Below, piece by piece: positions 1-46,972 of a stretch of DNA of 56,259 nucleotides (the first letter of the stretch is position 1; every line of letters begins with the position of its first letter). This stretch comes from Pirellulales bacterium. Its GTDB lineage: Bacteria; Planctomycetota; Planctomycetia; Pirellulales; JAIMBC01. A model generated the notes under the pieces. It made no database searches and was not told the DNA's origin. It saw only the letters and a list, made by a program, of their open reading frames with translations. Both the position numbers and the translations under genes were made by a program. The stretch covers positions 1 to 56,259 of the forward strand of contig JAIMBC010000003.1 of NCBI GenBank assembly GCA_023511675.1, given 5' to 3'.

Positions 1-395
1 ATCCAGCACTGGTCGGTACTGTCCATACAGCACAGCAGTTCGTCCCGGGCGGTCACCTCAATGGCTGTTTTACCATACTCCCTCAGTTCGGACCGCACCA
101 CCACCCCGCCCAGTTGGTGCGCCATCAGATGCATGCCGTAGCAGATCCCCAGGATGGGTATCCCCAGGTCATAAATTGCGGGGTCACAGGAGGGCGCCCC
201 ATCTTCATACACGCTGGACGGTCCCCCGGAAAAAACAATACCCCTGGGATTCTTCGACTTTATTTCCGGCAGGGGTGTGTTAAAAGGGAGCATTTCACAA
301 AAAACCTTCAGCTCCCGGATGCGCCTGGCGATTAACTGGCTGTACTGCCCGCCGAAATCAAGCACTATCACCATTTCCCGTTCAAGATCACTCAT
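1..395 (-). CDS. guaA: GMP synthase (glutamine-hydrolysing), N-terminal glutamine amidotransferase part; runs off the window edge
   Basis: Not in the ORF track. Manual minus-strand translation from ATG at 395: [34 protein letters not shown]...[16 protein letters not shown]...[18 protein letters not shown]. DFGxQY, SGGP and GICYG are GuaA class-I GATase motifs. GGAGGT RBS upstream. Confidence 0.95.
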
Positions 396-411
396 TTCGG
401 GCTACCTCCGT

Positions 412-954
412 TTATCCGTTGGAATACTTACCGGGTTTAAGCACCGCTATTTCCCTGAGATTTCTGTATTGTTCGCCGTAGTCAAGGCCGTACCCCACCA
501 CGAACTTATCGGGTATGGCAAACCCGTTGTAGTCGGGAACCACATCCGTCTTCCGGCGGGACGGCTTGTCCAGCAAGGTACATATTTTAAGGCTGGCCGG
601 CTTCCTGGTGGAAAGGTTATCCAGCATATACTTCAATGTCAGCCCGGAATCCACAATATCCTCCACCAGTAAAACATGCCTGCCCTCTATGCTCTGGTCC
701 AGGTCCTTCAGTATCTTGACCACCCCGGACGATTCGCTGGCCTTGCCGTAGCTGGAAACGGCCATGAAATCTATGGCCAGCGGCACCGTTATGTGCCTGA
801 TCAGATCCGCCATAAAGACGACGGCCCCTTTAAGAATTCCTACCACCAGGATCTCATATCCGCGGTAATCTTCGGAAATTCTCTTGCCAAGCTCATCCAC
901 CTTTTGGGCAATCTGTTCTTCCGTCAGCAGGATTTCCTGTATGTCGGGATGCAA
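412..954 (-). CDS. hpt: Hypoxanthine phosphoribosyltransferase
   Basis: Motifs GILKGA, VLLVEDIVDSGLTL (PRPP-binding), LLDKPSRR and FVVGYGLDY. Likely start is TTG at 954 (MHPDIQEILL), downstream of GGAGGT; the ORF track starts at 966. Confidence 0.95.
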   Translation of the reverse strand: MHPDIQEILLTEEQIAQKVDELGKRISEDYRGYEILVVGILKGAVVFMADLIRHITVPLAIDFMAVSSYGKASESSGVVKILKDLDQSIEGRHVLLVEDIVDSGLTLKYMLDNLSTRKPASLKICTLLDKPSRRKTDVVPDYNGFAIPDKFVVGYGLDYGEQYRNLREIAVLKPGKYSNG

Positions 955-1007
955 TGTAAAAAACACCTCCGGCTTTTTCGTCGATACCTGTCTATTTTAC
1001 AAATCTT

Positions 1008-1036
1008 ATTATATACCACCGCCTGTCAGCTGTCAG
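1008..1036 (-). promoter_or_regulatory. Putative sigma-A promoter of hpt-guaA
   Basis: Minus strand reads CTGACA (1036-1031), 17 nt spacer, TATAAT (1013-1008), about 55 nt upstream of the hpt start. Confidence 0.6.
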
Positions 1037-1056
1037 CCTGCAGCAAACCTATTCCC

Positions 1057-1098
1057 AAAAAAGAAAAAAGAATTGGGGTAATTCATCACTTACCCCAA
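1057..1098 (-). terminator. Intrinsic terminator downstream of the 1112..1834 gene
   Basis: 9-bp stem TTGGGGTAA (1073-1081) / TTACCCCAA (1090-1098), followed on the minus strand by a long T-rich tail (complement of 1057-1072). Confidence 0.8.
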
Positions 1099-1111
1099 AT
1101 TTCCAACTGTT

Positions 1112-1834
1112 TTACTTGCTCTCTATGCTTTTCTCCAGGGGGGGATTGATTTTTATTTTTTCATTGAAATCTCTGAATCGCATTTCCACCGCCAGACCTT
1201 CGGACCCGCCGGGTATGTAGGCCTGCATGGAAGCTTTGCGGATCAGTTTTTTCCCGGGATCTATCCATACCCTGTACTTGAACTCGCTGTATTTATTCTC
1301 CAGGAACGGGTTAACCACGTTGGGCTTTAATTCCAGGACCACGGTCTTTTCCCCGTCCACCTTTTCGCTGCCCAGCTTTTTGATGACGGGGATATCCTTG
1401 AACTTAAACAGGCCCAGCGGGTTAAACTCGGTGATGAACAGTTCGGACTGCGCCAGGGAGTTTCCCTTCAGGGTGAACCACCTGTCGGACCAGGGGTCCT
1501 TCATATAGGTGGTGTCCTCGATCTGGATGAATTCCATCTGGGATTTCTGCATCGCTCCCTTGATATGGACCCTGTCGGGCTCAACCCGCTCCCCTTCAAC
1601 CAGTATAATGGTGTCCTTGCCGCCCTGTTTGACCTCAACGCTGTAGCGGTAGCTGGAACAGGCCAGGGTATTATCCAGGGCTTTATTAAACAAGTCCTTT
1701 TCCGATCCGGTGAAATTGCTCAAAAGCGACGATCCCCACCACAGAACGATCAATAAAACCGCCGCCGCCACGGCAGACGGAAAGATGCGTCTCCTGTTCA
1801 ACACGTACCAGCGCGGCCAAAGCAATAACTTCAC
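1112..1834 (-). CDS. Hypothetical membrane-anchored exported protein, possibly LolA/LppX-like fold
   Basis: 240-aa ORF with an N-terminal hydrophobic anchor (AVAAAVLLIVLWWG). The beta-rich body ends in ...VWIDPGKKLIRK...FRDFNEKIKINPP, a pattern typical of LppX/LolA-like lipoproteins. The fold call is inference. Confidence 0.6.
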   Translation of the reverse strand: MKLLLWPRWYVLNRRRIFPSAVAAAVLLIVLWWGSSLLSNFTGSEKDLFNKALDNTLACSSYRYSVEVKQGGKDTIILVEGERVEPDRVHIKGAMQKSQMEFIQIEDTTYMKDPWSDRWFTLKGNSLAQSELFITEFNPLGLFKFKDIPVIKKLGSEKVDGEKTVVLELKPNVVNPFLENKYSEFKYRVWIDPGKKLIRKASMQAYIPGGSEGLAVEMRFRDFNEKIKINPPLEKSIESK

Positions 1835-1998
1835 CCCCGATCATCCATTACCAAATATATACTTGAAAGTCAGCTTAAATATGTATGTGGTATGATTTAC
1901 CATAAACTAAACATGCTTTTCTAATAAAATATAAAGTGGAATAAGAGCCAAAAAACTGATAAAATTATGTAGCTTGAGTTTTCAACGGGGTGAAATTT

Positions 1999-2322
1999 TT
2001 GGATATCAAGGACATGCAAGCCGATGTGGACCGCTGGATAGGACAGTTTGAAGAGGGTTACTGGCACCCGCTGTCAATGCTGGCCAAGCTTACCGAGGAA
2101 GTAGGGGAACTGGCCAGGGAGGTTAACCACCTGTTTGGCGAAAAGCCCAAAAAGCCGGATGAACCGCCGGGCGACTTGGCTCTGGAGCTGGCCGACATAT
2201 TATTCATTATTATTTGTTATGCCAATTCTTTAAATATTGACCTGGAGGAGGCCTTTAACCGCACCATGGCCAAGTACCGCCAGAGAGACAGTGAAAGGTG
2301 GACGCCCAAAAGCGGGAATTAG
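1999..2322 (+). CDS. ypjD: YpjD-family MazG-like nucleotide pyrophosphohydrolase
   Basis: Motifs GYWHPLSMLAKLTEEVGELAREVNH..GEKPKK and ELADILF (all-alpha NTP-PPase EExxE). Likely start is TTG at 1999 after GGGGTGA; the ORF track starts at 1990. Confidence 0.85.
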   Translation: MDIKDMQADVDRWIGQFEEGYWHPLSMLAKLTEEVGELAREVNHLFGEKPKKPDEPPGDLALELADILFIIICYANSLNIDLEEAFNRTMAKYRQRDSERWTPKSGN

Positions 2323-2371
2323 GAATTGGAAATCAATTCCGGACCCTGAATAACAGCTAAGGAGGATACGA

Positions 2372-2673
2372 ATGGCTACGATTATCCCTTTCAGGGGAAT
2401 CCGGTACAACCCCGATAAAATAAAAAACCTGGCCGACGTGGTAACACCCCCTTACGACGTTATCGATGCAGCCGCCCAGGACCGCTACTACCGGAAGCAT
2501 CCCTACAACATAATCCGCCTGGAATACGGAAAGATCTTTGACGGCGACGGCCCCGGCGACAACCGCTATACCAGGGCGGCGGCCTTCTACCGGGACTGGC
2601 TGAAGGAAAACGTACTGGTGCAGGAAAAGGACCGCGCCCTCTACCTATACGAGCAGGAGTTCACCGCCGGCGG
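2372..2673 (+). CDS. DUF1015-family protein, 5' fragment only (cut at the sequence junction)
   Basis: MATIIPFRGIRYN...VVTPPYDVI...PYNIIRLE...ALYLYEQEF is the DUF1015 N-terminus, with AAGGAGG RBS. After ...EFTAGG the translation becomes low-quality Arg/Gly/Cys-rich text, so the ORF-track end at 3217 is spurious. Confidence 0.85.
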
Positions 2674-2794
2674 CATCTGGGGGAGATGCGGGGGCGGCCT
2701 GGGCAGCAGACAGCTCCTCATTGGCCGTGGCGTGGAGCGTGCCACCGAGTCCCAGAGCGGCCAGCATCAGACAGGCCACCAGCAGCAGCGGCAT
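2674..2794 (-). CDS. N-terminal signal-peptide fragment of an exported planctomycete protein, truncated at the junction; start uncertain
   Basis: MPLLLVACLMLAALGLGGTLHATANEELSAAQAAPASPPD reads as a signal peptide plus linker. It lies on the same strand downstream of DUF1501 and loses coherence at about 2673. Confidence 0.4.
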
Positions 2795-3230
2795 GTCCCA
2801 GCCCTTTGTGCGGCACTCTGGCAGGGACCGCACGCACCGCGCCGCCGGAGACAGCGCTTCCACCGCAGAAGGGCGGCGCAACGCCGCAGCTTTAGAAGCT
2901 GCCGTTACACCTCGTTCGCGGCGCCACGTCACATCCAGTGCGCCATGTGTCCTTGTGGCTGCGTGCATGCTGGTGGTTCCTGTATGGCGAGAAGCAAATG
3001 TCGCTCGGGGGGGCGGCACGCAGCGGCCATGCCCTGCCACACGATCGTGCGATCGCGCTGCGGGACGGCGTGCGCCCTGAGCATGATGGCTAGAACACAG
3101 CAAGGCGGGGAAGGCGTGCAGGCAATCTGTGACAGACGGGCCGCCTTACCGGCCAAGGGCGGCCGCTTCCACGGCAGGCATGTGGGTCATCCAGGCGCGG
3201 GGGGAACATGCAAGTAGCGGGCAGCCCTGT

Positions 3231-28314: not shown

Positions 28315-31300
28315 TTACTGGGCCTCTGCAGGCAGTGGCACGAGATGCACGGCTGCATCGGTGCAAGCCGCCGCCACTCGATCTGCTTGGGGATGATAGG
28401 CGGCGTAATAGGCCACAGCAGGCAGGCGGTGTGAGAACAGCGGCTTGCCCTCGGCGGCATCCCAGACGTGCAGGTGGCCGGCATAGCCGCAGGAGAGCAG
28501 GCGTGTGCCCTGGGGATTGAACACCACACGGTAGATGTGGTCTGTGTGGCCCGTACCGGACCAGCGCAGCTCGCTGGTGGCTACATCCCAGACGCGCACG
28601 GTCTTGTCCAGGCCGCCGGCGGCCAGCAGTCGGCCATCCGGGCTGAAGCAGACGGTGTACACGGGTGCCGCGGGGCCGGGGAGCCGTTTCAGTTCGCTGC
28701 CGGTGGAGGCGTCCCAAATGCGCACCGTGGTATCGGCGCCGCCGGAGGCGAGGAGGGTTCCGTCCGGGCTATAGGCCACAGTATAGACGCTTCCCTGATG
28801 GCCGGTGATCTGCCGCACCTGATTGCCGGTGGAGGTGTCCCAGATGCGGATGGTTTGGTCGGCACTCGCGGAGGCGGCCAGCGGCGATTGGGGCGCAAAG
28901 GCCACGGCATAAACGGGACCGCCGTGCCCTGCAAGCGTGCGTACTGCCTGAGGGCTGGCCTCCAGCCATTCCTTGACGGAGCTGCCGCTGGCAGAGTAAA
29001 GCGTCTTGTTATCGGGAGCGATGGCGACGGCGGCGATAGGTGCAGCATCGGTGAAGTCGTCCAGCAGCCTGCCCTGCTGACTTTGGAAGACGCGGAGATG
29101 GCCATCGTCTCCGCCTGCCAGCAGGCGGCTATTGTCCTGGCTGTAGGCCAGCGTGCGCACGGCCGCTGGCGTCTGGAGCTGCTGGATGAGTTCGCCGCCC
29201 GGGGTCCAGACATAGACCGTGCGGTTCGCGGAGCCGGCGGCAATCTGCTGGCCGTCGGGCCTGGCTGCGAGCGCAAAGAGCGGCCCTTCGGCCCCCTCCA
29301 GCAAACGGTTCTGATTGCCGTTGCCGTCGAAGGAGCGCACACGGCCGTCCTCGCCGGCGGCAGCCAGTGAGCCGTCCGGCAGCCAGGCCACGGCATTCAC
29401 GGGGCCGGGGCCGCAGGCAAGGGCGCGCAGCGCGCAGGTGCGTCTCAACCAGAGCGTGCCGTCTGCGGCGGCTGTTGCCAGCGTCCGGTTGTCATCGGCC
29501 CAGTGCACCGCCAGCGCGCCCATGCTGCCTGCCTCAAACTGCTCAAGGGAAAGGCCCGTTGATGGATCCCAGATCCGCACCAAACCATCGTCCGCGGCTG
29601 TGGCGAGCCGCTGGTTGTCTGGCGAGAATTTCAGTGCCGCTACGTTACCACCATGTGCCAGCCGCAGTGGTTCCGGCGGACCACCCTCGCGGGTCAGCTC
29701 GGCCACGTTCCACACGAGCACCTCCTTGCCCACGGCGACGGCCACACGCCCTCCATCACGCGAGACAGCTACGCGGCCCGGCTGGCCCCCCGCAAGCTGC
29801 ACGGCGGCCAGTACGCTGCCGTCTGCCGCATTCCACATCACCAGCCGACCGTCCTGCCCGGCCGAGACCAGCCGAGAGCCATCCGCAAACCAGGCCACGC
29901 CGCTTGCACCACCCTTGTGGCCAGACAACAGCATGGCGAGCGAGGTGGCAACCAGCCGAGCGCCGCCGTCCGCCGTGCTGGCCAGCAGCCAGCGATTGTC
30001 TGGTGCAAAGGCCACGTTGCGCACCGCCGCCGGAAACTCGAAGCGTTCCAGCAAGCGTGCGTCCTGGCTGGCGTAGAGCCGCAGTTCGCCGTTCTCGCAT
30101 CCGGCGGCAAACTTGTTTCCGTCGGGCGAGTAAGCCAGTGCCGTGATGCCGGCGGAGGCGCTTCGGCGCACAGCCTCCCCCGGCTGGGCCAGATTCCAGC
30201 GGAAGATGGTCCGGCCGCCAGCCGCCGCAAGTTCGGCTCCGCCGGGCCGCACGGCTAACGCGGCCAGCGGCGTATCGCCCGCCTCGAACTGCTGTACGGG
30301 GCTGCCCGCAACGTCGAACAGGCGCACACGGCCGTCGTCCCCCGCCGTGACAAACCTCGTGTCGTCCAGCCAGGCCACGGCCCCGCAGACCGATCGATGC
30401 GCTGCCACTGCCAGCTCGCAGGCCAGAGGCGTCACTGCGGCCGTACGATCCGCGGCAGCAGAGAAGAGCGTATTGCCCACGGCCGCCACGCCCAGCACCG
30501 GACCGCTGTGCCGCCCAACACGCTCCAGCTCGCGCCGCTGCGTCAGACTCCAAACGTGCACGGCACCGTCTTCACACGCAGCTGCAAGACGGTCGGGTTC
30601 GCGGAGTACTGCCAGCCCCTTCACCGGGGCTGGCAGCTCTAGGATCGCCTCCTGCTTGCCGAACGCCGCCGCCTGCGGATCCGCCAAGTTCCAGATGTGC
30701 AGCTTGCTGCCGGCCCCGCACAGCAGACGCTGGCCGTCGTGGCTCCATGCCACGCACGCGGCAGCCTCGCCTGCGTTCAGATTGGCCACTGCCTCCCCCT
30801 GCGCCAGGCTCCACACCCGCACCAAACCATCGGCCCCCGCGCTGGCGAGGCGCGACCCATCAGGCAGGTACGCCACACTCGATGCACCACCCTCATGTGT
30901 GCCAAGCACGGCAAGCAAAGACACCGCCAGCAGCCGGGCTTGATCGGCTCCGCCGGCCAGCACGGTCTTGCCGTCCGGCGCCATGGCAACGGTCATCAAA
31001 GGCGCAGTGCCGGCGCGAAGTTCTTCCAGCAAGTGGCCAGACGGAATCTCGAACACGCGCACCCGGCCATCTGCCAAGGCAGCCGCCAATCGTTCCCCTG
31101 AGGTTTTGAAGGCCAGGCCGACACACACCTGGGGAAGCTGCCAGCGCTGTACGGGTTGGCCTGTGCCTGTGTGCCACACCTGAACCGTCTCTCCGCTGGC
31201 CGCGGCGGCCAGACTGCCCGTCGGGGCAACCGCAACTGCGGCAATGGGACCTTCCAGGCCTTCCAGCGGCGTGCCTGCGGCGGCATCCGGGGGCCAGAGC

Positions 31301-34300
31301 AACACAGGCCCCTCTGCGCCGGCCGACACGATGGCCTCGCTGTCGGGCAGCCACGCGGCACGGGCTGGCCCTTGCTTCAAGGCGAGCACACGTTGAGCCG
31401 TGCGGGGCCAGAGGCGCACGGTACGATCGGCAGATGCTGATGCTACCCAACGGCCGTCGGCAGAGAGTGAGATTCCCAGCACGGCCGCGGCATGGCCCCG
31501 CAGGCGTTCGAGCGGCTGTCCCGTGGCGAGGTCGAAAATGGCGATGGACGCATCATCCAATGGGGCCAGCACCGTGTGGCCGGCGGAATCTACGGCCACA
31601 CCGCGGGGGACGGTATCCAGCGAAAGAGAGACCGGGGGCGTCTGCGGGTGGCTGAGATCCCACGCCAGCAACTGGCGTGCTTCGCTGGCTGCGGCCAGCA
31701 GCTTGCCGTTGTTTGCGGCGGCCAGGCCAGTTACAGTCGCGGAGGCGGTCAACTCAGCGATCGGCTGCGCGGCTGTGCGCGACCAGAGTCGCACTGTGCC
31801 GTCTGCGCCGGCAGTGGCAAGCTGTTGATCATCGAGCCAGGCGAGGCTGGTGGCAGCACCCTGGTGAGCGGAGTAAAGCGCCAGCAACGAGCGGGTGAAG
31901 ATGCGGACATGGCCGTCGGCTCCGCCCACGGCGATGTTGCGGTCGCTAGCAGCCAGGGCGGTGCAGCGCTGGGAGACGTTGGGCGTGGCAAACGTTTCTT
32001 CCAGGCGGCCGTCGCGGGAAACGACGCGCAGCAGGCCATCGGCGCATGCCAGGGCCAAACTGCCCTGGCCGCAGAAGGAGATTCCAGCAATATCAGCCGG
32101 CTGGGGGGGCAGGCTTGCCCCGGCAGCGCCGTCTGCCAGCCGCCACAGACGCACCACGCGATCGGCCCCGGCGGTTGCGGCCATTTCTTCACCGGCTGCC
32201 AGGTTTGTCAGACCGGCTCCATGGGCTGCGTTCCACGCAGGCGTGCCCTGAGCGTCGAACGTGCGCAGGCTGCCATCCGCAAGACCAACCAGCAGCCACT
32301 GTCTCGCGGCATACCTGACTTGGACCACAGGAGCGCCCAGAGCGTCGAGTTTGCGCAGCAAGGTTCCGTCGGCCAGCCGAAACACCGCCGCGGTTCCGTC
32401 GGCTCCACCGGCACAGATCTGATCTGCCGCGAGTGCCAGCGAGGTGAACTCGGCCTCATGTCCCGTACACTGAAGCACCTGCTGGAATGTGGCGGCATCC
32501 CACACACGCACGGTGCGGTCGGTGCTGCAAGTTACGATGCGGGCTGCATCCTGGCTCCAGGCCACGCCGGTTACGGGACCTGCATGGCCGCTCAACGTAC
32601 CGGCGGCCTCTCCCGTGTTGAGATTCCATACCTTCACCATGTGGTCGGCTGAGGCGGTGGCCAATAGCTTCTGATCGGGACTGGCGGCCATGACCAGAAT
32701 GGGCTGGCTATGGCCGGAGAGGAGTTGCGGGGCGACGGGCAGGCTCCACAAGCGCAGCGTGCCGTCTTCTCCCACAGAGGCCAGCACTCCCCCGCGTGGC
32801 GAGAAGGCCAGCGACCGCACCGCGCCTACATGACCAGCGAGGCTATAGCGATCCGCGCCGTCGGCAAGGCTCCACAGCCTGATCATGCCCGTGGCGCTCC
32901 CAGCCGCCAGGAGCGTCTCATCGCCGCTGGCGGCCAGCGACGTCACAGCACCGTTTTGTCCCTCGAACGCGCGCACCTGTTGCCCACTGGCTGCGTCCAG
33001 CAACCGGACCGTCTGATCGAGTCCACCGGAGACGACGTGGGTCCCTCCCCCCAGCACGACCACGGCCGTGGCCTGATCTGCATGGACCTGCCACGACCTC
33101 GCGGCTGCAAGCGGCAGCTCCCAGATGCGCAGGCTGCCGTCGGCCGACGCAGAGAGCAAGCGCGTGCCCGCCCCGTTGTACGACAGGCTATGCACCGCCC
33201 CTGCGGGGCTATGGAACTCTGCCAGCGGCGCGCCTTCGAAGTTCCAGAGGCGAATCTGCCCTGCCTGATCGGCAGTGGCAAGCTGAGGCTGCGCGGGATG
33301 GAACGCTGCTGCCGTGACGCCCTGCCCGTGAGCCTCCCAGGCACGAAGCTGGCTGCCATCGGCCAGCCTCCAAAGTCGCAGCACGCGGTCTGCGCCGGAC
33401 GTGCAGGCCAACTCTCCAGTGGGGCTGATGGCCGCCACCGTCACAGGCTGGGCATGGCCGCTGAGGACGCGCGGCGCGGTGGGGAGCTGCCACAGACGAA
33501 CGGTGCCATCGTCCGCCGCGGTCGCTAGGCCCTGGCCTTGCGGATGAAACGCCAGTCCCCGAACGGACGCGCCCCAGGCAAGCTGGAGCCGATCTGCCCC
33601 GTCGCCCGCGTTCCAGAACTGTATCACGCCATTGCTGCCGGCAGCGGCAAGCAAGCCGCCGTCTGGACTCACCGCCACCGCCCCTACGGCGCCTGGGACG
33701 TTATTGTACTGTCGCAGAGGCTGACCACTCGCAGCGTCGAAGGCGCGCACCGTCTGGTCCAAACTGCCTGTGTATGCCACCTGGCCCCCAGGCGCAGCAG
33801 CCACACAGGTCACCTGATCGGTGTGCCCAGACAAGCTGCGCGGCACGCTCTGGGGCAGGCGCCATAGCCGCACGGTTCCATCCCCGCTGGCGGAGACAAG
33901 TTGCTGCGAGTTGCCATGCCACGCTAACGACGTAACAGCCCCCCCTGCTGCGGTGAAGGCATGGAGCACGGCACCATCCTGGGTCTGAAGCAGGCGAATA
34001 TTGCCGGCTGCATCGCCACTGGCCACCAAGGCATTGTCTCGTCGAAAGGCCAGCGCCGTGATGGGCTGCGCTTGTGGAGTCAGTTCTCGCACGATCTGGC
34101 CATTGGCGGCATTCCAGAGCCGCAGCTTGCCATCCGCCGTGCCGGTGACAGCCCACTGGCCGTCCGCACTGAGACAGGCCCTGGCTTCTGCCGCGTCATG
34201 CCCTGCCAGCTCTCGCGGAGCTTGCGGCAGTTGCCAGATGCGCACAAAGCCATCCGCACCCGTGGTGGCAAGCTGCTGGTTGTTGGGGTGGATGGCCACG

Positions 34301-35352
34301 TCCGTGACCGCGCCGAGATGCGCCGCGAGCATCTGACGGTCGCTGCCGTCTGCCGCATTCCAAAGCTTGACATGCCCCGTTTGGCTCCCAGACGCCAACA
34401 ACCCGCCATCAGATGACACGGCCAGCACAGCCGGCTGGCCGGGCTGGCCCGCATAGCTGCGCGTGATCTGACCCGAGCTGTCCGTGGCGCGCACCTCTCC
34501 CGCGGCCGTGGCCGTGTACACCGCCTGCCCGTTCGGGGCGAAAGCCATGGCACGCAACTCGCCCGCGTGCACGGGAAGTTGTGTGGGAGGCATCTGCGGT
34601 AGCTGCCAGATCCGCGCCGCGCCGTCGCTACCGGCCGATGCCAACAGCGCGTTGTTCGGGCCATATGCCAGACTGGAGACCCTTCCGCCGGGGCTGAACA
34701 ATGCTGCCATCTGCCGGCCGTCGGCGGGGTTCCATACCTGGATGCGGCCTGTCGCATCTGCCGAGGCCACCTCGGCACCATCGCGGCGGTAGGCGGCGGC
34801 GGTAACTGCAGCACTGTGCCCCTCGTACAGCAGCAGGGTGCTTCCCTCTGCACGCTGCCAGAGACGCAACGTGTGGTCGGCACTGCCGGTGACGGCGAGG
34901 GAGCCGTCTGGGCTGAGTGCCAGGCAGGTGATGGTCTGCTGGTGCCCCTGCCAGACGGCCAGGGGGTGGGGCACCAACATGTCCCACAGCCGCAGCGTGT
35001 TGTCTCGAGAGCCGGTGAGCAGCCGCGTTCCGTCGCTGGAAAGCGCCAGGCAAAGGACCTGGCCCTGATGGCCTTCCAGCGTGCGCAGGGTGGCGCCGGT
35101 GGCGACATCGAAGATGCGGACCGTGTTGTCGAAGCTGCCGCTGACCAGCAGTTCGCCGCTGGCAGCGAACTCGGCGGCGCTCACGCTGCTGGAGTGGCCC
35201 ACGTACTTCTCGGGCGGCTGACCGCCCGCCGGTTGGGCCAGCAAGGCAGGGGCCGCCGCCAGCAGCGTGCCAAACAGGGCTGCCACCGTGTGCAGAGGCC
35301 GTGCGCCTCGACGATCGTATGGGAGCAAGCAGGGAGGATGTGCAGGGGTCAT
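28315..35352 (-). CDS. Giant exported WD40-repeat protein (2345 aa, 56 blades by manual count)
   Basis: Signal peptide (VAALFGTLLAAAPALLA-Q) followed by uninterrupted GH...SPDG..L.SGS.D.TVR.WD repeats to the C-terminus. Confidence 0.93.
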   Translation of the reverse strand: MTPAHPPCLLPYDRRGARPLHTVAALFGTLLAAAPALLAQPAGGQPPEKYVGHSSSVSAAEFAASGELLVSGSFDNTVRIFDVATGATLRTLEGHQGQVLCLALSSDGTRLLTGSRDNTLRLWDMLVPHPLAVWQGHQQTITCLALSPDGSLAVTGSADHTLRLWQRAEGSTLLLYEGHSAAVTAAAYRRDGAEVASADATGRIQVWNPADGRQMAALFSPGGRVSSLAYGPNNALLASAGSDGAARIWQLPQMPPTQLPVHAGELRAMAFAPNGQAVYTATAAGEVRATDSSGQITRSYAGQPGQPAVLAVSSDGGLLASGSQTGHVKLWNAADGSDRQMLAAHLGAVTDVAIHPNNQQLATTGADGFVRIWQLPQAPRELAGHDAAEARACLSADGQWAVTGTADGKLRLWNAANGQIVRELTPQAQPITALAFRRDNALVASGDAAGNIRLLQTQDGAVLHAFTAAGGAVTSLAWHGNSQQLVSASGDGTVRLWRLPQSVPRSLSGHTDQVTCVAAAPGGQVAYTGSLDQTVRAFDAASGQPLRQYNNVPGAVGAVAVSPDGGLLAAAGSNGVIQFWNAGDGADRLQLAWGASVRGLAFHPQGQGLATAADDGTVRLWQLPTAPRVLSGHAQPVTVAAISPTGELACTSGADRVLRLWRLADGSQLRAWEAHGQGVTAAAFHPAQPQLATADQAGQIRLWNFEGAPLAEFHSPAGAVHSLSYNGAGTRLLSASADGSLRIWELPLAAARSWQVHADQATAVVVLGGGTHVVSGGLDQTVRLLDAASGQQVRAFEGQNGAVTSLAASGDETLLAAGSATGMIRLWSLADGADRYSLAGHVGAVRSLAFSPRGGVLASVGEDGTLRLWSLPVAPQLLSGHSQPILVMAASPDQKLLATASADHMVKVWNLNTGEAAGTLSGHAGPVTGVAWSQDAARIVTCSTDRTVRVWDAATFQQVLQCTGHEAEFTSLALAADQICAGGADGTAAVFRLADGTLLRKLDALGAPVVQVRYAARQWLLVGLADGSLRTFDAQGTPAWNAAHGAGLTNLAAGEEMAATAGADRVVRLWRLADGAAGASLPPQPADIAGISFCGQGSLALACADGLLRVVSRDGRLEETFATPNVSQRCTALAASDRNIAVGGADGHVRIFTRSLLALYSAHQGAATSLAWLDDQQLATAGADGTVRLWSRTAAQPIAELTASATVTGLAAANNGKLLAAASEARQLLAWDLSHPQTPPVSLSLDTVPRGVAVDSAGHTVLAPLDDASIAIFDLATGQPLERLRGHAAAVLGISLSADGRWVASASADRTVRLWPRTAQRVLALKQGPARAAWLPDSEAIVSAGAEGPVLLWPPDAAAGTPLEGLEGPIAAVAVAPTGSLAAAASGETVQVWHTGTGQPVQRWQLPQVCVGLAFKTSGERLAAALADGRVRVFEIPSGHLLEELRAGTAPLMTVAMAPDGKTVLAGGADQARLLAVSLLAVLGTHEGGASSVAYLPDGSRLASAGADGLVRVWSLAQGEAVANLNAGEAAACVAWSHDGQRLLCGAGSKLHIWNLADPQAAAFGKQEAILELPAPVKGLAVLREPDRLAAACEDGAVHVWSLTQRRELERVGRHSGPVLGVAAVGNTLFSAAADRTAAVTPLACELAVAAHRSVCGAVAWLDDTRFVTAGDDGRVRLFDVAGSPVQQFEAGDTPLAALAVRPGGAELAAAGGRTIFRWNLAQPGEAVRRSASAGITALAYSPDGNKFAAGCENGELRLYASQDARLLERFEFPAAVRNVAFAPDNRWLLASTADGGARLVATSLAMLLSGHKGGASGVAWFADGSRLVSAGQDGRLVMWNAADGSVLAAVQLAGGQPGRVAVSRDGGRVAVAVGKEVLVWNVAELTREGGPPEPLRLAHGGNVAALKFSPDNQRLATAADDGLVRIWDPSTGLSLEQFEAGSMGALAVHWADDNRTLATAAADGTLWLRRTCALRALACGPGPVNAVAWLPDGSLAAAGEDGRVRSFDGNGNQNRLLEGAEGPLFALAARPDGQQIAAGSANRTVYVWTPGGELIQQLQTPAAVRTLAYSQDNSRLLAGGDDGHLRVFQSQQGRLLDDFTDAAPIAAVAIAPDNKTLYSASGSSVKEWLEASPQAVRTLAGHGGPVYAVAFAPQSPLAASASADQTIRIWDTSTGNQVRQITGHQGSVYTVAYSPDGTLLASGGADTTVRIWDASTGSELKRLPGPAAPVYTVCFSPDGRLLAAGGLDKTVRVWDVATSELRWSGTGHTDHIYRVVFNPQGTRLLSCGYAGHLHVWDAAEGKPLFSHRLPAVAYYAAYHPQADRVAAACTDAAVHLVPLPAEAQ

Positions 35353-38500: not shown

Positions 38501-40497
38501 AGGGCCATCCCCGTAACGCTCCCCTGATGCGCCGCCACGGTAAGCGGCGATGCAAGCTGATGCATGTTCCAAAGGCAGACGCGTCCGTCGGCCTCCGCAG
38601 TCAACAGAGTTTGCTGGTCCACGAAGCACACGGCCGTGGCTTGCTGATCGTGGGCCGGCCAGTGCGCCAGCTCCGGCATGCGCCGATCTGCCAGGTCCCA
38701 AACGCGCACCGTGCCGTCGTCGGCGGCCGTGGCCAAACGCTGTGCATCGGGAGAAAAGGCCAGAGCGCGAATCTGCTTGGTGTGGCCCAACAAGAGATGC
38801 GTGGTTGCTCCCTGTTCGAGATCCCGGACCACGGCCGCCGGCCGCCCGTCGATTTCCTCCGCCGTGGCAAGCCAGCGGCCGTCGTAACTGAGGGCGGCAG
38901 CCGTGGGCCGTGCCTCGTTCTGGCAAAGGGCGGCCGCCTCCGCATCCAACTGCCAGAGCCTCAGCGCACCATCGTCCGTCGCAACGACCACCCGACGGCC
39001 CTCGGGATGCACGGCCAGATCGGCCACGCGAGCCTGCCCGAGCCGCAAAGTCTGCAAGATCTCATTTGCATCGAGCGAAGCGACCTCCACCCTGCCCACA
39101 GCCGGAGCGAACGCGGCCCGGCTGCCGTCTGGCCACAACGCCACACGCTCCAGATGACCGGCTTCTCCGCGGGCAACCGTGCTGATCCTGAGATCTTCGA
39201 GAGTCAAACGGCGGAGGCGGCCATCCTGCCCGCTCACCAGCGCGCTTCGTGCAGGGGATACGACCAACGACGTGGCCGGAGCAGACAACCGCGCAATGCG
39301 CTGAGAGGCCGGCTGCTGGAGTGCCCAGTACTGCACGTAGCCGTCGCCGCTGCTGGTGGCGATGTGCGTCTCGTCCACAAGGGCAAGGTGGCGCACGGGA
39401 GCCGGCGTGATCAGCCGCCGCAACTGCCGGCTACTCTCCACGCTCCACACGCGTACGGTTCCGTCCAGCCAGGCGGCGTACAGCACTTGGCCATCGGCAG
39501 AGAACCGAACCTGCGATATGCCCGCGGCGTGGCCCCGCAACACGCCTTCCAGGCGGCCATCGACTGCGGCCAGCAGATGGATCTGTGCGTCTCCCACCAC
39601 CACCGCCACCAGACGGCCATCAGGGCTGGCAGCCAGAACGCCCGCCGACGGTCGCGCCGCGCCGCCATCCGCCATGCCCTCCTGCTGGGGCTCCGCCCCA
39701 CTCCATTGCCAGCGGCGGACGTCCCTGGGACGACGCCAAACTCGTATTGTCTTGTACCCGCCCGCGGCCAGCAGTTCGCCGGTCGGATCGAAGGCGATGG
39801 CACGCACGCCGTCTCGATCGGCCTGCCCGCTCGCCAGGGCTGGGTCGGCAAGCTGTGCTACCAACCGTCCCGTCTGAGTCTGATACACAAACAACTGCGT
39901 CCCTCGGCTGAAGGCCACCAGGGCATCATCGCTGCTGAAGCGCACGGCCCAACCGGGCTTCCAGGCAGCAGGCGGCTGGCGCCAGCGCACCGCGGCACGC
40001 CGCGATGAGACGCTGCCCGAGGCACCCTCTTCGATCCAGCGACGCAATACCTCGAGTTCTGCGTCGCCAAGCGGCTCTGCTCCCACCTGATTGTCAGGCG
40101 GAGGCATGGCCGGCTCGGTGCGGCCGCTGGTTAGGGCCAGGAGCAGGCTGTCCACGGGATTGCCGGGTACCACGGCGGGGCCGCGGGAGCCGCCGGAGCG
40201 GATGGCCTCGGGCGTCTCCAGTACCAAGCCACCTTCGCTGCGAGACGCGCTATGGCACGCCAGGCAATGCGCTTGCAGAATGGGCAGCACATGCTCTTCA
40301 AAACGAACCTTGTCTGCCGCTGGCGTGCCGGGCTGCGGAGGTTGCCCCAGCACCGCCGGATTGCAGGCAACCATGCTCATGGCAAGCCCTGCACAGCAGA
40401 GGCCTGCCCAGACGCGAGACCAGTTCGGTGGGAAAGGCAGTTCGTGGGTAAAGCGAGTCGGCATCATTGCCAGTACATCAGGGGCTGTGCTTGCCAT
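35518..40497 (-). CDS. Planctomycete cytochrome c (PSCyt1-like) + WD40 repeats (28 blades) with inserted coiled coil
   Basis: Signal-like hydrophobic segment, then VRFEEHVLPILQAHCLACH...GGLVL...AVVPG.P..SLL...MPP...WIEEGA (CxxCH at 40252-40266), WD40 blades, and an Ala/Gln/Glu helical insert at about 36455-37200. Start is 40497 or 40467. Confidence 0.9.
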   Translation of the reverse strand: MASTAPDVLAMMPTRFTHELPFPPNWSRVWAGLCCAGLAMSMVACNPAVLGQPPQPGTPAADKVRFEEHVLPILQAHCLACHSASRSEGGLVLETPEAIRSGGSRGPAVVPGNPVDSLLLALTSGRTEPAMPPPDNQVGAEPLGDAELEVLRRWIEEGASGSVSSRRAAVRWRQPPAAWKPGWAVRFSSDDALVAFSRGTQLFVYQTQTGRLVAQLADPALASGQADRDGVRAIAFDPTGELLAAGGYKTIRVWRRPRDVRRWQWSGAEPQQEGMADGGAARPSAGVLAASPDGRLVAVVVGDAQIHLLAAVDGRLEGVLRGHAAGISQVRFSADGQVLYAAWLDGTVRVWSVESSRQLRRLITPAPVRHLALVDETHIATSSGDGYVQYWALQQPASQRIARLSAPATSLVVSPARSALVSGQDGRLRRLTLEDLRISTVARGEAGHLERVALWPDGSRAAFAPAVGRVEVASLDANEILQTLRLGQARVADLAVHPEGRRVVVATDDGALRLWQLDAEAAALCQNEARPTAAALSYDGRWLATAEEIDGRPAAVVRDLEQGATTHLLLGHTKQIRALAFSPDAQRLATAADDGTVRVWDLADRRMPELAHWPAHDQQATAVCFVDQQTLLTAEADGRVCLWNMHQLASPLTVAAHQGSVTGMALHQSNVITVGSDGVLRTAPLSDLGSARTVPLAGPAVALAMASGASRAAVAVRFAPQPPAADPAAPAEAATGQNRQEEAGHQFTDRAGIQVIDLETLRVIQTITTATDGQGTPPHALALDSQGTLVAAADANGVHAWDVPQGLLLSALDVPPCNALFWQPGSQVLCVAAEGSVLRTALPVARVAAAHAGRGSVAWSADGSRIVSAGEDGRLLVWDGELRPAFAAELGSAGWDVAVSPTGNVLAAACDDGRIRLLEQNGSPARELTGFTAPVTCVAFSSDGRFAAGGDAAGQVRLFEVQEGRCVQAYASHTAAVTGVGIDVVDSQQQDAPLRVISCSSDGTIRRHALLATRRIRAHDDPLTAMEAVGDGRLFTADAAGRVREWNAEAQLVRQLELGAAVRALAVRPDGARLIAGGENGAARLWNLEDGQLLGELQGDFRLAAEAAKLARQAESLQLRLSAHEELLAQAQNDAQPRASEAESRQTAFAAAERDHAQRMATLRSAMDAWQQAQAAAFAATRQARQAQRALADAMQQVTRLEQAAARAAQRAEQARSAAAAKRDDEKLAQAAEAAEHDSQRAAERLNQARESLAAAEERAATLAPMAAEAQARAAALAAEADQAQQAAQQAMEAMREARRLAEDAQAAYRQAQTQLENGLAIKSMLQQSLEEVRTRQQSLEAEFQTSLRTVTAAAFLPPGVVATTGESGAIYLWQDDTGRPADVIEAGTLPVHVLAFVAGGVASMGGLTAAAWELEPAWPLHRVLGGEEADVPADRVLALEFSPDGTLLAAAGGDPSRSGELMLWEAASGRLIAHLPQAHSDTVLAAAFSPDGRYLATGGADRLVKVFSVPELRELQRFEGHAHHVLAVAWRSDGERLASAGAEGVVRIWNPLAGEPLLAIEGFAKPVTALRFLPGSSTVISGCGDKLLRQHEIDGGNLLRTWEAADYVNALDLTANAQLLAAIEHSGSLRIWHFESGQLVHLLPPDTQDVQQSETVPP

Positions 40498-43400
40498 CGA
40501 GATCCTCCCCTGGCGCGGCCGCGGGCGCGATCCACACCCGGAGGGGCCGCAGCACCTCGACTCCCTGGCCGTTGAAGCCGAGCGAGAGCCGCAACACGGC
40601 CTGGTGCGTGCCGAGTGCCGCATCCGGGGCTGCTTCCACCCGCAAGGCGCCCGCGGTCTGCTGCGGCTCGAGATACAGGCCTGAGGCACCAAGGCCCGCG
40701 GCGCCCTCGGGCAGCCCTAGTTCGACGGAAACCCCCTCTTCAAAGCCGAACAGGCGTACGATCGAGATGGGCAGCTCGACGCTTGTACCCGGGGCAACGG
40801 TCAATTCAGCGGGCACCGTCAGCTCGAGAGGGGCTTCGGCCACATCGATGGTCACCGAAGTCGACGGATAGGCCGCGGCATAGCCACGCGTCGCGGCTGC
40901 TTCGGCCAGCTCCGCTGCCAGGCGTTCGAGTTCGGCAAACCACTCCGCGGCCTCTGCCGCGGCGCGCTCAGCGTGAGAAAGGGTCTGTTGGGCCTGGTCG
41001 AATTCAGCTACAGCGCGTTCGAGCGCTAGCCGGCGGTGTGCCAGTTCTTCTTGAATGCGCGTGAGCTGGCTAAGGGCAGCGTCTCGTCGTTCTTGGGCAT
41101 CCCTGGAGCGTGCAGCCGCTTGTTGTAGCTGCTCGGCCAGAGCGGGGTCTGCGGGGGCTTCCTTGGCGGCGCGGCGAGCGGCCTCGAGTTGCTCGGCGGT
41201 CTGGGCCGCTTGCGCATCGGCTTCCGCACGTGCCTGTTCTGCGGCATCGAGTTCGATGCGGCCGTCTTCAACCTGGCTGCGTGCTTGCGCCAGGTTCTGC
41301 TCCGCCGCTGCGAAGGCCTCGGCGGCACGGTTGGCCGCCGCCTGCACCTCGGGCAGGGCCGCTTCCACAGCCGCCTTGCGTGCCGCGGCTGCTGCCGCGG
41401 CCTCGGGATTGCGGGCATACGGCACCTCGGCCACTCCCATCAGAGAGAACGTGTAGCGGCCTGTTGGGCAGTCTCCAGGCAGAATGAGTTCTAACGTGCC
41501 CGACGAGGCGGAACCTTCCAGATTCAGTTCATTGATCTGCTGCAAGCCGGGCGGACCGCCGCGCAGTGCAAAAGAGACGCTGCCCGCAAACCCCCCGCGC
41601 CGTACCACCTGTACGGGTATGGAAAGGCGGGCGCCGCGGCAGGTAGACAAGGCGGGCTGTTGCGTCTCCCCCAGTCGCGCGGTGAAAGGGGCCGCCTCTG
41701 CCAGAACGTGCAGCGGCAGCGCTGCACTCACCCGTGCGCGGGGCAAAGGAGGCCGCCGCGGATCGTAGGGCACCGTGCCGGCCAGCGCCGTGCGTTCCAC
41801 CACGCGGCCGCCTAAGGTGGCCCTCGCCACCACGCGCAGGTATGCCAGCGCCGGCTCCACTGCTTCATCCGCCACCAGCGTCACACTTCCGGCAGACAAC
41901 CCCGGCCCCAGCACGGCCGGCTCCGCGCTCACGCCCGGCGGCAGGCCTTCGATTTGCACCTCGACCTCTCCCGCAAAGCCCTGAATGCGATACAGAACCA
42001 GGTCGATGGTCTCCACGCCGCCAGCGCGCAGCACCAAGGGCCAGACAGCCGGCGAGCGATCGTTGGGATCCTCTCCCACTCCAGCGGTACGCGGCAGGGC
42101 AACCAGCGAGAAGTCTGGCTCGGCCTGGCGGATCAGCAGACAATACGCATGGCGCGGGTCGGCGGCTGGATTTCCGGTGAGATCCCGCAGCATCAGGCGG
42201 TATCGGCCGTCTGCCGGTGCCACAAAGAGCAGGGCGGGGTCTTTGGACTCGCAGTAGTCGGCCTGGTCGGGATGTGCGTCCAGGTCGTCGACGGCGGCCA
42301 GCTCGAGGGCTTGCTCGTTCCCCTCGTCGTCGCGCACAACCTGGTGGATCACCAGCAACGGGTCGGTCGGCAAGCCGAGACGGTGAGAGAGGACTTCGAT
42401 CCACAACGCCTCACCGCCGTTTGCATCAAAGGCGTACCAATCTCGATCGGCGCGCGAGAAGGTGCCCACCAGCTCACAGGGTACTTGCAAGGGCTGCGGC
42501 CGAGCGGGCTGGTTGTTGGGCTCACGTTCCTGTGCCAGAGGCGCAGCGGCGAAGAATAGCCGTACCGGATTGGCCGTTCCGTGCTGCGAGCGAAACAAGA
42601 GGTCGATCCCATCGAGCGCCTGGGGCGCCAGCTCCAGGGGCAGGCCAGCATGTTCTCCCCACGCCAGGACGCCGCCCATGTCCGCCGCTGTTGGAAGCGA
42701 GAAGCCTGCCACATCCTGCGAGTCCATATCGGGCGCAGCCGGAACCGGCCCCTCCGTTGCGCTGTCTGGGTGGGGGGGCTGACCGGCCGCGCCGGCAGGG
42801 GGCAGTTCCGGCGAAGCAGAGGAGCGGACCGTGCCTGGCCGTGCAGGCGATGAATTTTCCGCTGCCGGCTCGGACGCCCGGGCCGCAGCCGTGGCACCTT
42901 CCAGCACGGCCTGAAGGAAGCGTACCGAGGCGTCGGGAAGAGACAGCTCTAGGGAAAGCTCTTCCAGCTCATGGTTTCCGATGCGCACTCCCTTGGCCCG
43001 CTTGCCCCCGATATTGCGGCCGTACAGGGTGATGCGGCTGCTTTGTCCGGCGGGGATGGCCGGCGGAAACACCATATCGATGTACGGCCCCGTCGTGGCA
43101 TGCAGGCGGTACACATAGCCGAGCATGCCGTCTCCGCCGTACGCCGCGTCATGCACGGCCACATGGTAGATCGCGGGCCGCGCGGGAGTCACATCCAGGA
43201 TGGCACGCCCGTACACGCCGCTCGTAGCCGTGGCAAGCTGGGCTCCCTGCTCGTCATGCAGCACGAGCGTGGGGGCAGCACGTGAGTCGATCTGCCTTGC
43301 CTCGCACACGATCAGCGTCCGTGCCGCCCCTAAGGCCAGGCGGTACACGTCCACGTCTCCTTCTCCCTCCAGCACGCCATTGGCCACCGCCTCCAGCGTC

Positions 43401-43834
43401 AGCTCCGTGGCTGCATCGCACTGGTTGTTCGGTTCCGTTTCACGCACTTCAGGCCGGCTGCCCACCATGAATGGCCGCGGATTGGAAAGACCGTACCTTC
43501 CCTGGACGCGCAGTTCATACGTGCCGGCAGCAACCTCCGCCCCGATTGAAACGATGAAGCGATTGGCCGCCACTTGCGGTTCGCTCTCCGTCAACCTGGG
43601 GGGGCGCATCAGCGGTTCGGCCGCAATGCCCGGATGAGAGGCGATCAGCCGTGCGGGCTCTGCCGCCGCCCCATCCAGGTCCGCGCCGGCTACCTCCACT
43701 TCCACACGGGTACCCGCCTGTCCTCCAGCGGGGAACAGGCCATACAGCCGCGCTATGGGCAACTGTGCCTCCGCAGCGCGCAGCACAAGCAGGAGCCACA
43801 AGCAAAGGCAGCCGCACGGTACTTTAGGCCGCAT
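40478..43834 (-). CDS. Exported PPC (pre-peptidase C-terminal)/Ig-like repeat protein with inserted coiled coil
   Basis: Signal peptide, LFPAGGQAGT.VEV.V.G.DL, two E.EPNN motifs, DVDVY/DRDWY, DP.L.F.APADG.Y and PDFSL, plus a helical insert at about 40885-41420. No protease catalytic motif seen. Confidence 0.85.
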   Translation of the reverse strand: MRPKVPCGCLCLWLLLVLRAAEAQLPIARLYGLFPAGGQAGTRVEVEVAGADLDGAAAEPARLIASHPGIAAEPLMRPPRLTESEPQVAANRFIVSIGAEVAAGTYELRVQGRYGLSNPRPFMVGSRPEVRETEPNNQCDAATELTLEAVANGVLEGEGDVDVYRLALGAARTLIVCEARQIDSRAAPTLVLHDEQGAQLATATSGVYGRAILDVTPARPAIYHVAVHDAAYGGDGMLGYVYRLHATTGPYIDMVFPPAIPAGQSSRITLYGRNIGGKRAKGVRIGNHELEELSLELSLPDASVRFLQAVLEGATAAARASEPAAENSSPARPGTVRSSASPELPPAGAAGQPPHPDSATEGPVPAAPDMDSQDVAGFSLPTAADMGGVLAWGEHAGLPLELAPQALDGIDLLFRSQHGTANPVRLFFAAAPLAQEREPNNQPARPQPLQVPCELVGTFSRADRDWYAFDANGGEALWIEVLSHRLGLPTDPLLVIHQVVRDDEGNEQALELAAVDDLDAHPDQADYCESKDPALLFVAPADGRYRLMLRDLTGNPAADPRHAYCLLIRQAEPDFSLVALPRTAGVGEDPNDRSPAVWPLVLRAGGVETIDLVLYRIQGFAGEVEVQIEGLPPGVSAEPAVLGPGLSAGSVTLVADEAVEPALAYLRVVARATLGGRVVERTALAGTVPYDPRRPPLPRARVSAALPLHVLAEAAPFTARLGETQQPALSTCRGARLSIPVQVVRRGGFAGSVSFALRGGPPGLQQINELNLEGSASSGTLELILPGDCPTGRYTFSLMGVAEVPYARNPEAAAAAAARKAAVEAALPEVQAAANRAAEAFAAAEQNLAQARSQVEDGRIELDAAEQARAEADAQAAQTAEQLEAARRAAKEAPADPALAEQLQQAAARSRDAQERRDAALSQLTRIQEELAHRRLALERAVAEFDQAQQTLSHAERAAAEAAEWFAELERLAAELAEAAATRGYAAAYPSTSVTIDVAEAPLELTVPAELTVAPGTSVELPISIVRLFGFEEGVSVELGLPEGAAGLGASGLYLEPQQTAGALRVEAAPDAALGTHQAVLRLSLGFNGQGVEVLRPLRVWIAPAAAPGEDLDGKHSP

Positions 43835-46557: not shown

Positions 46558-46972
46558 GGGAACTACTCCTCGGCCAGAACCATCTGCGGTACGGCGGCTC
46601 ACCGCGGCACGTGCCAGCTTCGGGCGGCGCTGTGGTGGCAACCGCCACCAATGCGGGCCGCCAGGCAGCTCCCTCACCGCATGGCAGGTCCACATACCGT
46701 CCTGTACCGGAGGGACCACGGGCACATCCCTTCGCTAGGCCTAACGGGCAGGCAGCCACACGGGCCGCCTGGGCCTGGCGGCTCGAGGCATGCGCGGTCC
46801 TTTGCAACAACTTGACTGGTGCGGCTCGTTGGTTTCGTTATTCTCGCCGGCATGAGCCACGATGCAACCCACGGCCCCGGAGCAAGCTCCATTGAGACCA
46901 TGCCCGCGGGGAAGCAAGCCAAGTTTGGCCCGCCGCGGGCGATGACACCACCCTCGTGACGGCAGCGGCAGC

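Follow-up and report, generated by a model that had tools for sequence, protein, structure and literature searches.

A 56-blade WD40 protein from a Pirellulales bacterium predicted to nest its propellers along a hairpin

Results

Repeats and junctions of a 2345-residue WD40 protein

We analysed a window of 56,259 nucleotides (nt) from a Pirellulales bacterium (positions 1 to 56,259 of the forward strand of contig JAIMBC010000003.1, assembly GCA_023511675.1), in which a minus-strand gene at 28315–35352, with an ATG start and its stop codon at 28315–28317, encodes a protein of 2345 amino acids (aa) and 56 WD40 repeats, here designated P0001. With a probability of about 0.8, we read P0001 as an exported 56-blade WD40 protein whose eight seven-bladed propellers are laid out as a hairpin; the computed results that carry this reading are the blade count, the junction pattern, a scaling rule across relatives and the nested topology of AlphaFold2 models. 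Membership of the WD40 family is evident from profile matches to its tandem units of ~40 residues, with PF00400 scoring 1018 bits (cut-off 27) over 26 stretches, and all 25 of the Pfam families listed, of 72 matched, are WD40 or beta-propeller models. The closest solved structure by sequence is 2ymu_A, a repetitive Nostoc WD40 protein (E 7.8e-112). Residues 1–39 (35236–35352, minus strand), as read off the sequence, form a probable Sec signal peptide that has a basic n-region and a hydrophobic core, together with an A-L-L-A|Q site; in the AlphaFold2 model of the homologue P0147, an N-terminal helix is predicted at residues 4–29.

A repeat hidden Markov model (HMM) made from P0001 found 55 repeats, the only gap, at residues 1233–1276, containing a divergent 56th, and a second HMM made from all blades recovered 56 of 56. 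With each junction taken to extend from the 'W' that closes strand C up to the 'GH' of the repeat after it, we located W-x-L-P junctions after repeats 5, 8, 11, 14, 17 and 20, the proline of this motif being invariant or almost so in alignment A1 (P2, P125). The junctions after repeats 27, 31, 35, 39, 43 and 47 are devoid of glycine, fall 3–4 residues short of the normal length and lead into hydrophobic strands, and the junction WLEASPQAVR sits after repeat 51. Together, the HMM repeat counts and the junction positions confirm the arithmetic proposed in the initial annotation of this DNA, 2 + 6 × 3 + 7 + 6 × 4 + 5 = 56 blades. The six W-x-L-P linker strings that it had read from the sequence match the junctions after repeats 5 to 20 exactly, and the short, turn-less linkers that it had placed at every fourth blade are those found after repeats 27 to 47, with WLEASPQAVR in addition.

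All segments of the chain described here lie on the minus strand. Blades 1–2 (residues 41–124, 34981–35232) would, by analogy with P0147, be the outbound part of a base propeller, for which the predicted partners are blades 52–56 (residues 2131–2345, 28318–28962), assigned as its returning part by the same analogy; blades 52–56 are also the most canonical WD repeats of the protein. Blades 3–20 (residues 125–870, 32743–34980) make up six outbound blocks of three blades, each of which closes in a W-x-L-P junction, and blades 28–51 (residues 1154–2130, 28963–31893) make up six returning units of four blades, set apart by short Gly-less junctions, after which the D strands are hydrophobic. Between them lies the contiguous tip propeller, blades 21–27 (residues 871–1153, 31894–32742). 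This uninterrupted run of seven blades had been noted before at 31870–32716; the run exists, with boundaries that are off by ~25 nt, and we refine its description in that the central seven blades are the last, seventh three-blade block joined to the first four-blade block, with an ordinary hairpin between the two.

At its C-terminus (28318–28350, minus strand), P0001 ends in V-P-L-P-x4, which resembles the outbound junction motif. Similarly, the tails of P0007, P0040, P0068, P0147 and P0233 stop a few residues past an h-x-h-P motif like that of an outbound junction, and this terminal motif may be a general signal to leave the blade after strand C.

Blade-to-blade similarity shows an additional level of order. 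Among blades 3–20, it is highest at lag 6 (82.6, versus 59.7 at lag 3), and among blades 28–51 at lag 8 (56.0, versus 42.8 at lag 4); the blocks therefore alternate between two types. As judged from sequence, this alternation would imply that the protein grew in steps of two propellers, on two arms that lie far apart. We also observed that the nested pairing matches even outbound blocks to even returning blocks (28963–34980, minus strand).

Relatives of 21 to 70 blades follow a common rule

A search with the whole of P0001 gave 3070 significant proteins among 8000 scored; the best 120 of the 3070, which were listed, include many full-length co-linear relatives from Planctomycetota (Pirellulaceae, Lignipirellula cremea), with identities of 30–36%. 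L. cremea has two members, of 2429 aa and 1788 aa. Shorter proteins were brought in by a further search, with blades 15–35 as the query, and all were parsed with the blade HMM. The relatives fall into discrete classes of 21, 28, 35, 42, 49, 56, 63 and 70 blades, and every class shows Gly-less x-h-P junctions after blades 2, 5, 8 and so on, followed by short Gly-less junctions at every fourth blade and by five last blades. The blade number is thus given by N = 2 + 3m + 4m + 5 = 7(m + 1), with N = 56 and m = 7 for P0001. The family as a whole is defined by x-h-P junctions after blades 2, 5, ... 2 + 3(m − 1), an ordinary hairpin at 2 + 3m and short junctions after 2 + 3m + 4j; in P0001, 12 of the 14 special junctions lie at the predicted positions.

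Four relatives were checked by hand. P0147, with 28 blades, has proline-type junctions after blades 2, 5 and 8 and short ones after 15, 19 and 23; in the 42-blade P0068, the corresponding positions are 5, 8, 11 and 14 and then 21, 25, 29, 33 and 37. The proline-type junctions run from blade 2 to blade 20 in P0040 (49 blades) and from 2 to 26 in P0007 (63 blades), and the short junctions run from 24 to 44 and from 30 to 58, respectively.

For a quantitative comparison, 241 proteins were parsed and 72 of them passed a completeness filter (first GH ≤90 residues from the start, a tail of ≤15 residues, N a multiple of 7 and N ≥21), 65 of the 72 having at least three special junctions. In these 65 proteins, which are kin to one another, 500 of 611 special junctions occupy predicted positions, against 159 expected. 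When all pairs (a, b) of block numbers with 2 + 3a + 4b + 5 = N were compared, a = b was the sole best solution for 49 of the 65 proteins, tied for 14 and not the best for 2. Both expectations that the initial annotation had set out for homologues, namely a general form 2 + 3n + 7 + 4n + 5 and equal numbers of three- and four-blade blocks, are therefore upheld, with n ranging from 1 to 8 over 21 to 70 blades. The comparison set aside unrelated WD40 proteins whose N-termini are of kinase, STAND or M56 type, partial open reading frames (ORFs) and much of a class of ~2500 aa. Long insertions push the blade count of members of this class, such as P0018, P0019 and P0024–P0026, to 57–58; their special junctions 8, 11, 14, 17 and 20 and 31, 39, 43 and 47 fit the 56-blade rule and were not counted.

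The junction types themselves are sharply distinguished. Across 68 proteins, junctions between outbound blocks are short and Gly-less in 90% of cases (n = 298), with x-x-h-P in 82%, and those between returning blocks are short and Gly-less in 86% (n = 255), versus 5% for all other junctions (n = 2128). At the 3|4 boundary within the tip ring, the share is 2% (n = 63), i.e. an ordinary hairpin, which fits the hairpin layout because no propeller is left at that boundary. The D strands that follow return junctions have a mean Kyte-Doolittle value of 0.93 (n = 255), compared to 0.01 for ordinary ones (n = 2248). Gap placements in a blade-level dynamic programming alignment between the size classes were unstable.

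Six proteins (P0173, P0184, P0190, P0211, P0212 and P0214) carry 21-blade WD40 arrays C-terminal to a Peptidase_M56/BlaR1-like domain (precomputed PF05569), and in these arrays blade 12 is followed by a short Gly-less junction, as is blade 8 in two cases, the positions predicted for m = 2; judging from its sequence context, the nested module may have a further use as the sensing portion of membrane signal transducers. P0119 (1375 aa, on a 169-kb contig) starts exactly at an outbound x-h-P junction and is without the first ~11 blades of its 42-blade relative P0022 (1883 aa). This could reflect a gene that is split in nature, with assembly of the two halves in trans, or an artefact of a frameshift or start call.

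Predicted folds place outbound and returning blades in the same ring

For structure prediction with AlphaFold2, we used a construct of P0001 comprising blades 15–35 (residues 623–1476, window 30925–33486), chosen because three complete rings would result from a sequential fold (15–21, 22–28 and 29–35) as well as from a nested one, together with a 39-sequence alignment whose register was checked. The best model reached a mean predicted local distance difference test (pLDDT) score of 92.8 and a predicted template modelling (pTM) score of 0.84, the five models lying between 91.5 and 92.8 in pLDDT. The topology was read from the ranges of the model that align to chains of the PDB (VIA structural alignment), where model residue r corresponds to residue r + 622 of P0001.

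The seven-bladed propellers 5yzv, WDR5 and RACK1 align to model residues 251..531 (~280 residues, root-mean-square deviation (rmsd) 1.7, Z 39–40), so the contiguous blades 21–27 form one ring in the model. Other seven-bladed chains (G-beta, WDR5, RACK1) span model residues 120..694, with 286–299 residues aligned at an rmsd of 1.9–2.4 and Z ~39. A ring of ~290 residues that extends over 575 and omits the 283 of the middle ring must therefore consist of blades 18–20 (model 124–248) and blades 28–31 (model 532–694). A Foldseek-independent search agrees, with 5m23_A as its top match (127..695, 287 aligned, rmsd 2.0, Z 39.4). The aligned ranges of the model thus bear out the AlphaFold test that had been suggested for nesting, in that blades 18–20 share a ring with blades 28–31 around a contiguous tip of blades 21–27.

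P0147, the complete 28-blade relative of 1200 aa, was modelled at full length with 15 co-linear sequences (pLDDT 90.1, pTM 0.71), and all four nested layers appear. The tip layer (blades 9–15) covers model residues 364..651, the second (blades 6–8 and 16–19) 231..815 or 236..817, and the third (blades 3–5 and 20–23) 113..987, the last in an alignment to 4aez_A (289 aligned, rmsd 2.0, Z 36.8). The base layer (blades 1–2 and 24–28) spans 33..1197 in an alignment to 3smr_A (290 aligned, rmsd 1.8, Z 41.8) and is also matched by 2co0_A, 8g3e_A, 1tbg_A and 5cxb_A. This range places both termini of modelled P0147 in its base propeller, as the initial annotation had envisaged, and the N- and C-termini of P0001-type proteins are predicted to share a base propeller.

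Throughout the predicted models, the individual layers are those of ordinary seven-bladed propellers, matching WDR5, G-beta, RACK1 and 5yzv over 280–295 residues (Z 37–43, rmsd 1.6–2.1 Å). Only the tip propeller is built from contiguous repeats, as every propeller would be in a sequential, 2ymu-like chain; the non-tip layers span 575 to 1165 residues with ~290 aligned. The two-propeller chains 3mkq_A, 2ynp_A (beta'-COP) and 2ymu_B cover two layers only at an rmsd of 8–17 Å. The layers also differ from those of the Utp4/Aip1 type, where the last blade of the C-terminal propeller is closed by one N-terminal strand and both propellers are contiguous in all other respects, in that two or three whole blades come from the outbound arm. 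Overall, the aligned ranges and the scaling of homologues support the proposal that the chain runs out and back and that its rings are formed from outbound and returning segments.

Discussion

Weighing the hairpin against other arrangements

Three other arrangements of the same blades have to be considered. P0001 could consist of eight sequential propellers of contiguous blades (1–7, 8–14 and so on), with the three- and four-blade periodicity and the odd linkers as relics of duplication. Such an arrangement would be the conventional one, since tandem sequential propellers are the rule, and 2ymu_A, the best sequence match, which is titled 'a highly repetitive propeller structure', presumably folds as two sequential propellers; moreover, the larger repeats seen at lags 6 and 8 resemble duplication units. 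The AlphaFold2 construct, however, was free to form rings 15–21, 22–28 and 29–35, yet it nested with high confidence. In sequential propellers, the special junctions would vary in structural position from one propeller to another, yet they are conserved over the classes of 21–70 blades, the switch point scales as 2 + 3m, and the equal numbers of three- and four-blade blocks are not required by such a model. Although blades are, with few exceptions, in sequential order according to an excerpt from PMC6805158, we consider this arrangement very unlikely for P0001.

Pairing of the three-blade blocks with the four-blade blocks of another chain, in an antiparallel domain-swapped dimer or filament, would also account for the equal block numbers and the special junctions, and the excerpt from PMC6805158 describes propellers that form from fragments of several chains. 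What makes it unlikely is that the contiguous tip propeller links both arms directly, which favours closure within one chain, and that the monomer models close intramolecularly with high confidence, including that of full-length P0147 with its termini. Following the two strongest self-similarities, at lags 6 and 8, blades 3–20 could form three six-bladed propellers, blades 28–51 three eight-bladed ones and the remaining 14 blades two seven-bladed ones, and the eight-bladed WD40-like designs Tako8 and Ika8 are among the PDB sequence matches. We find this scarcely credible: in the 49- and 63-blade members, the blocks contain 15 or 21 blades on the outbound side and 20 or 28 on the returning side, numbers indivisible by 6 and 8, and every layer in the AlphaFold2 models and VIA alignments fits seven-bladed propellers over ~285–295 residues at an rmsd of ~2 Å.

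Several observations weigh against the nested hairpin itself. All structural evidence is prediction, with the topology read through aligned ranges, and the outermost layer of the P0001 construct (blades 15–17 and 32–35, model 1..854) is absent among the 50 alignments listed and depends on its high pLDDT and on the homologue. Closure of the base in P0001 is extrapolated from the homologue P0147 and from the junction pattern. Among the relatives, 111 of 611 special junctions lie off the predicted positions, and as the counted proteins are kin, p-values are nominal and the statistics overstate independence. P0023 and P0027 score one junction higher with a = 11 and b = 4; these exceptions belong to the ~2500-aa class, in which the blade count is disturbed by long insertions. 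The super-periods at lags 6 and 8 would imply coordinated duplication on distant arms, for which we know of no simple mechanism. Finally, neighbouring genes are unrelated in both relatives examined and give no contextual support for a function.

A strand-level model of the proposed hairpin

In the nested hairpin as we envisage it, the chain would run outward through two blades and then seven three-blade blocks, and turn at the tip, where the last three-blade block and the first four-blade block would form the sole contiguous propeller. On the way back, each four-blade block would complete an outbound three-blade block, and the final five blades would complete the first two.

Along the sequence, a WD repeat supplies the D strand of one blade and then the A, B and C strands of the blade after it. 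The special junctions are all located between a C and a D strand, and the aligned ranges open with the initial D strand of an outbound block and close with the final C strand of the returning block that partners it. Repeat phase and aligned ranges therefore place every inter-propeller crossing at a C-to-D connection, with the consequence that adjacent blades of neighbouring propellers would swap their outer D strands; according to the models, neighbouring propellers probably exchange outer strands in this manner. From the C strand of an outbound block, the chain would continue into a D strand that fills up a blade of the adjoining propeller; from the C strand of that propeller's returning block, it would pass through ~2 residues, as read with the DSSP strands of the construct model, into the D strand that fills up the blade of the outbound block. 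Outbound crossings would use x-h-P linkers of ~5–6 residues, and return crossings linkers of ~2 residues followed by hydrophobic D strands that are probably buried; the hydrophobicity of the strands after return junctions fits burial at an inter-propeller contact. This predicted strand topology suggests edge-sharing with swapped outer strands over coaxial stacking.

Each non-tip ring would have two velcro-like closures and need both arms to close. Folding would thus start at the tip and zip back to the termini, and its product would be a doubly connected, stiff array with a length set in whole propellers. It is conceivable, and we propose it tentatively, that such proteins are length-programmable 'propeller ladders': rigid extracytoplasmic rods with strand-swapping blade pairs as rungs, which fold only tip-first and zip back as the returning arm leaves the Sec channel, and which act as a ruler or scaffold of 3 to 10 propellers in the planctomycete envelope. 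To our knowledge, this would be the deepest nesting of discontinuous domains.

Relation to known propellers

By repeat family and fold, P0001 is an ordinary WD40 protein; its predicted topology is what sets it apart. It shares repeat family and ring with WDR5, G-beta, RACK1 and PkwA (5yzv), to which its modelled layers align over ~280–295 residues (rmsd 1.6–2.1 Å, Z 37–43), and the tip propeller of P0001-type proteins closes like a canonical one, the D strand at its start packing against the C strand at its end. A canonical WD40 ring, however, is one contiguous stretch with a single closure, whereas seven of the eight rings of P0001 are predicted to arise from two stretches up to ~2000 residues apart, with two closures each.

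Nesting of one propeller topologically inside another has a precedent. Aip1 is a nested tandem propeller like Utp4. In Utp4, according to a partial text of PMC5456268, propeller 1 is continuous (38–381) and the very N-terminus completes blade 14 of propeller 2. There, nesting involves one level and one strand, whereas in P0001 whole two- or three-blade segments are predicted to be nested over 7 levels (2 to 9 in relatives). The Nostoc protein 2ymu is likewise bacterial, has many near-identical WD repeats and is the closest solved relative by sequence, but it fits one layer at a time (279–283 residues) and reaches an rmsd of 13.9 Å over two propellers; the inter-propeller arrangement therefore differs. 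Rings completed by blades that are non-contiguous in the chain also occur in Sec13-type blade insertion. Oligomeric propellers, as outlined in the PMC6805158 excerpt, are closed rings assembled in trans. The likeness to P0001 is that a ring is completed by non-contiguous blades; trans-assembled rings are intermolecular and single, whereas those of P0001 are predicted to be intramolecular, ordered and repeated with a fixed 3 + 4 split. A prokaryotic WD40 survey (PMC5587647) reports enrichment in Planctomycetes, and the portion of that survey available contains no mention of such a nested layout; similarly, a full-text search of papers accessible without subscription yielded no description of a comparable nested topology.

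Beta-propellers are textbook domains built from consecutive repeats. If the hairpin is correct, rings divided 3 + 4 between two arms that run antiparallel would introduce a new principle of architecture among repeat proteins, with as many as nine levels of nesting and a single domain shared by termini ~2300 residues apart. For folding, it would mean extreme contact order and obligatory tip-first closure in a protein exported N-to-C, and for protein design, a possible rigid rod of programmable length. In evolution, the counts of three- and four-blade blocks have moved together from the 21-blade to the 70-blade class. Contiguity, in turn, is presupposed by the programs that parse domains and annotate repeats.

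Genomic context

With low confidence, we suggest that P0001 acts outside the cytoplasm as a scaffold or spacer, displaying its propeller faces in a row. Neighbourhoods were compared for two relatives in other genomes (2359 aa in G013 and 1779 aa in G005), where HDOD, FliG and MCH genes in one and MFS, GcvP and helicase genes in the other revealed no conserved operon. A sample of 61 genomes of the order contained 6 with a match at E ≤ 1e-60, the window's own included, and a single-protein pattern scan of genome contigs returned 1 related locus among 40 pattern matches. The window has a G+C content of ~65%, with 0.495 at positions 1–2000 versus 0.62–0.70 elsewhere, and no Rfam family reached its gathering score in 1–3000.

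The 56-blade gene is the end of a run of four large secreted-protein genes on the minus strand. At the head of this run, a gene at 43852–46725 encodes a protein with PSCyt2 (DUF1549), PSD1 (DUF1553) and Big_2 domains. It is followed at 40478–43834 by the gene for P0123, a protein of 1118 aa with a signal-peptide-like start, two 'EPNNQ' motifs and a long coiled-coil-like segment, for which no Pfam family was matched at E ≤ 1e-5. P0122, encoded immediately upstream of P0001 (35518–40692), is a large WD40/coiled-coil protein of a different kind, in which a CxxCH motif near the N-terminus is followed by WD40 repeats, a very long Ala/Glu/Gln-rich coiled-coil-like stretch and a C-terminal WD40 propeller. 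Its N-terminus looks, at the level of sequence and without a confirming Pfam match, like a planctomycete cytochrome-c domain. The listed TTG start of P0122 overlaps the upstream ORF, and its true start is therefore probably an internal Met.

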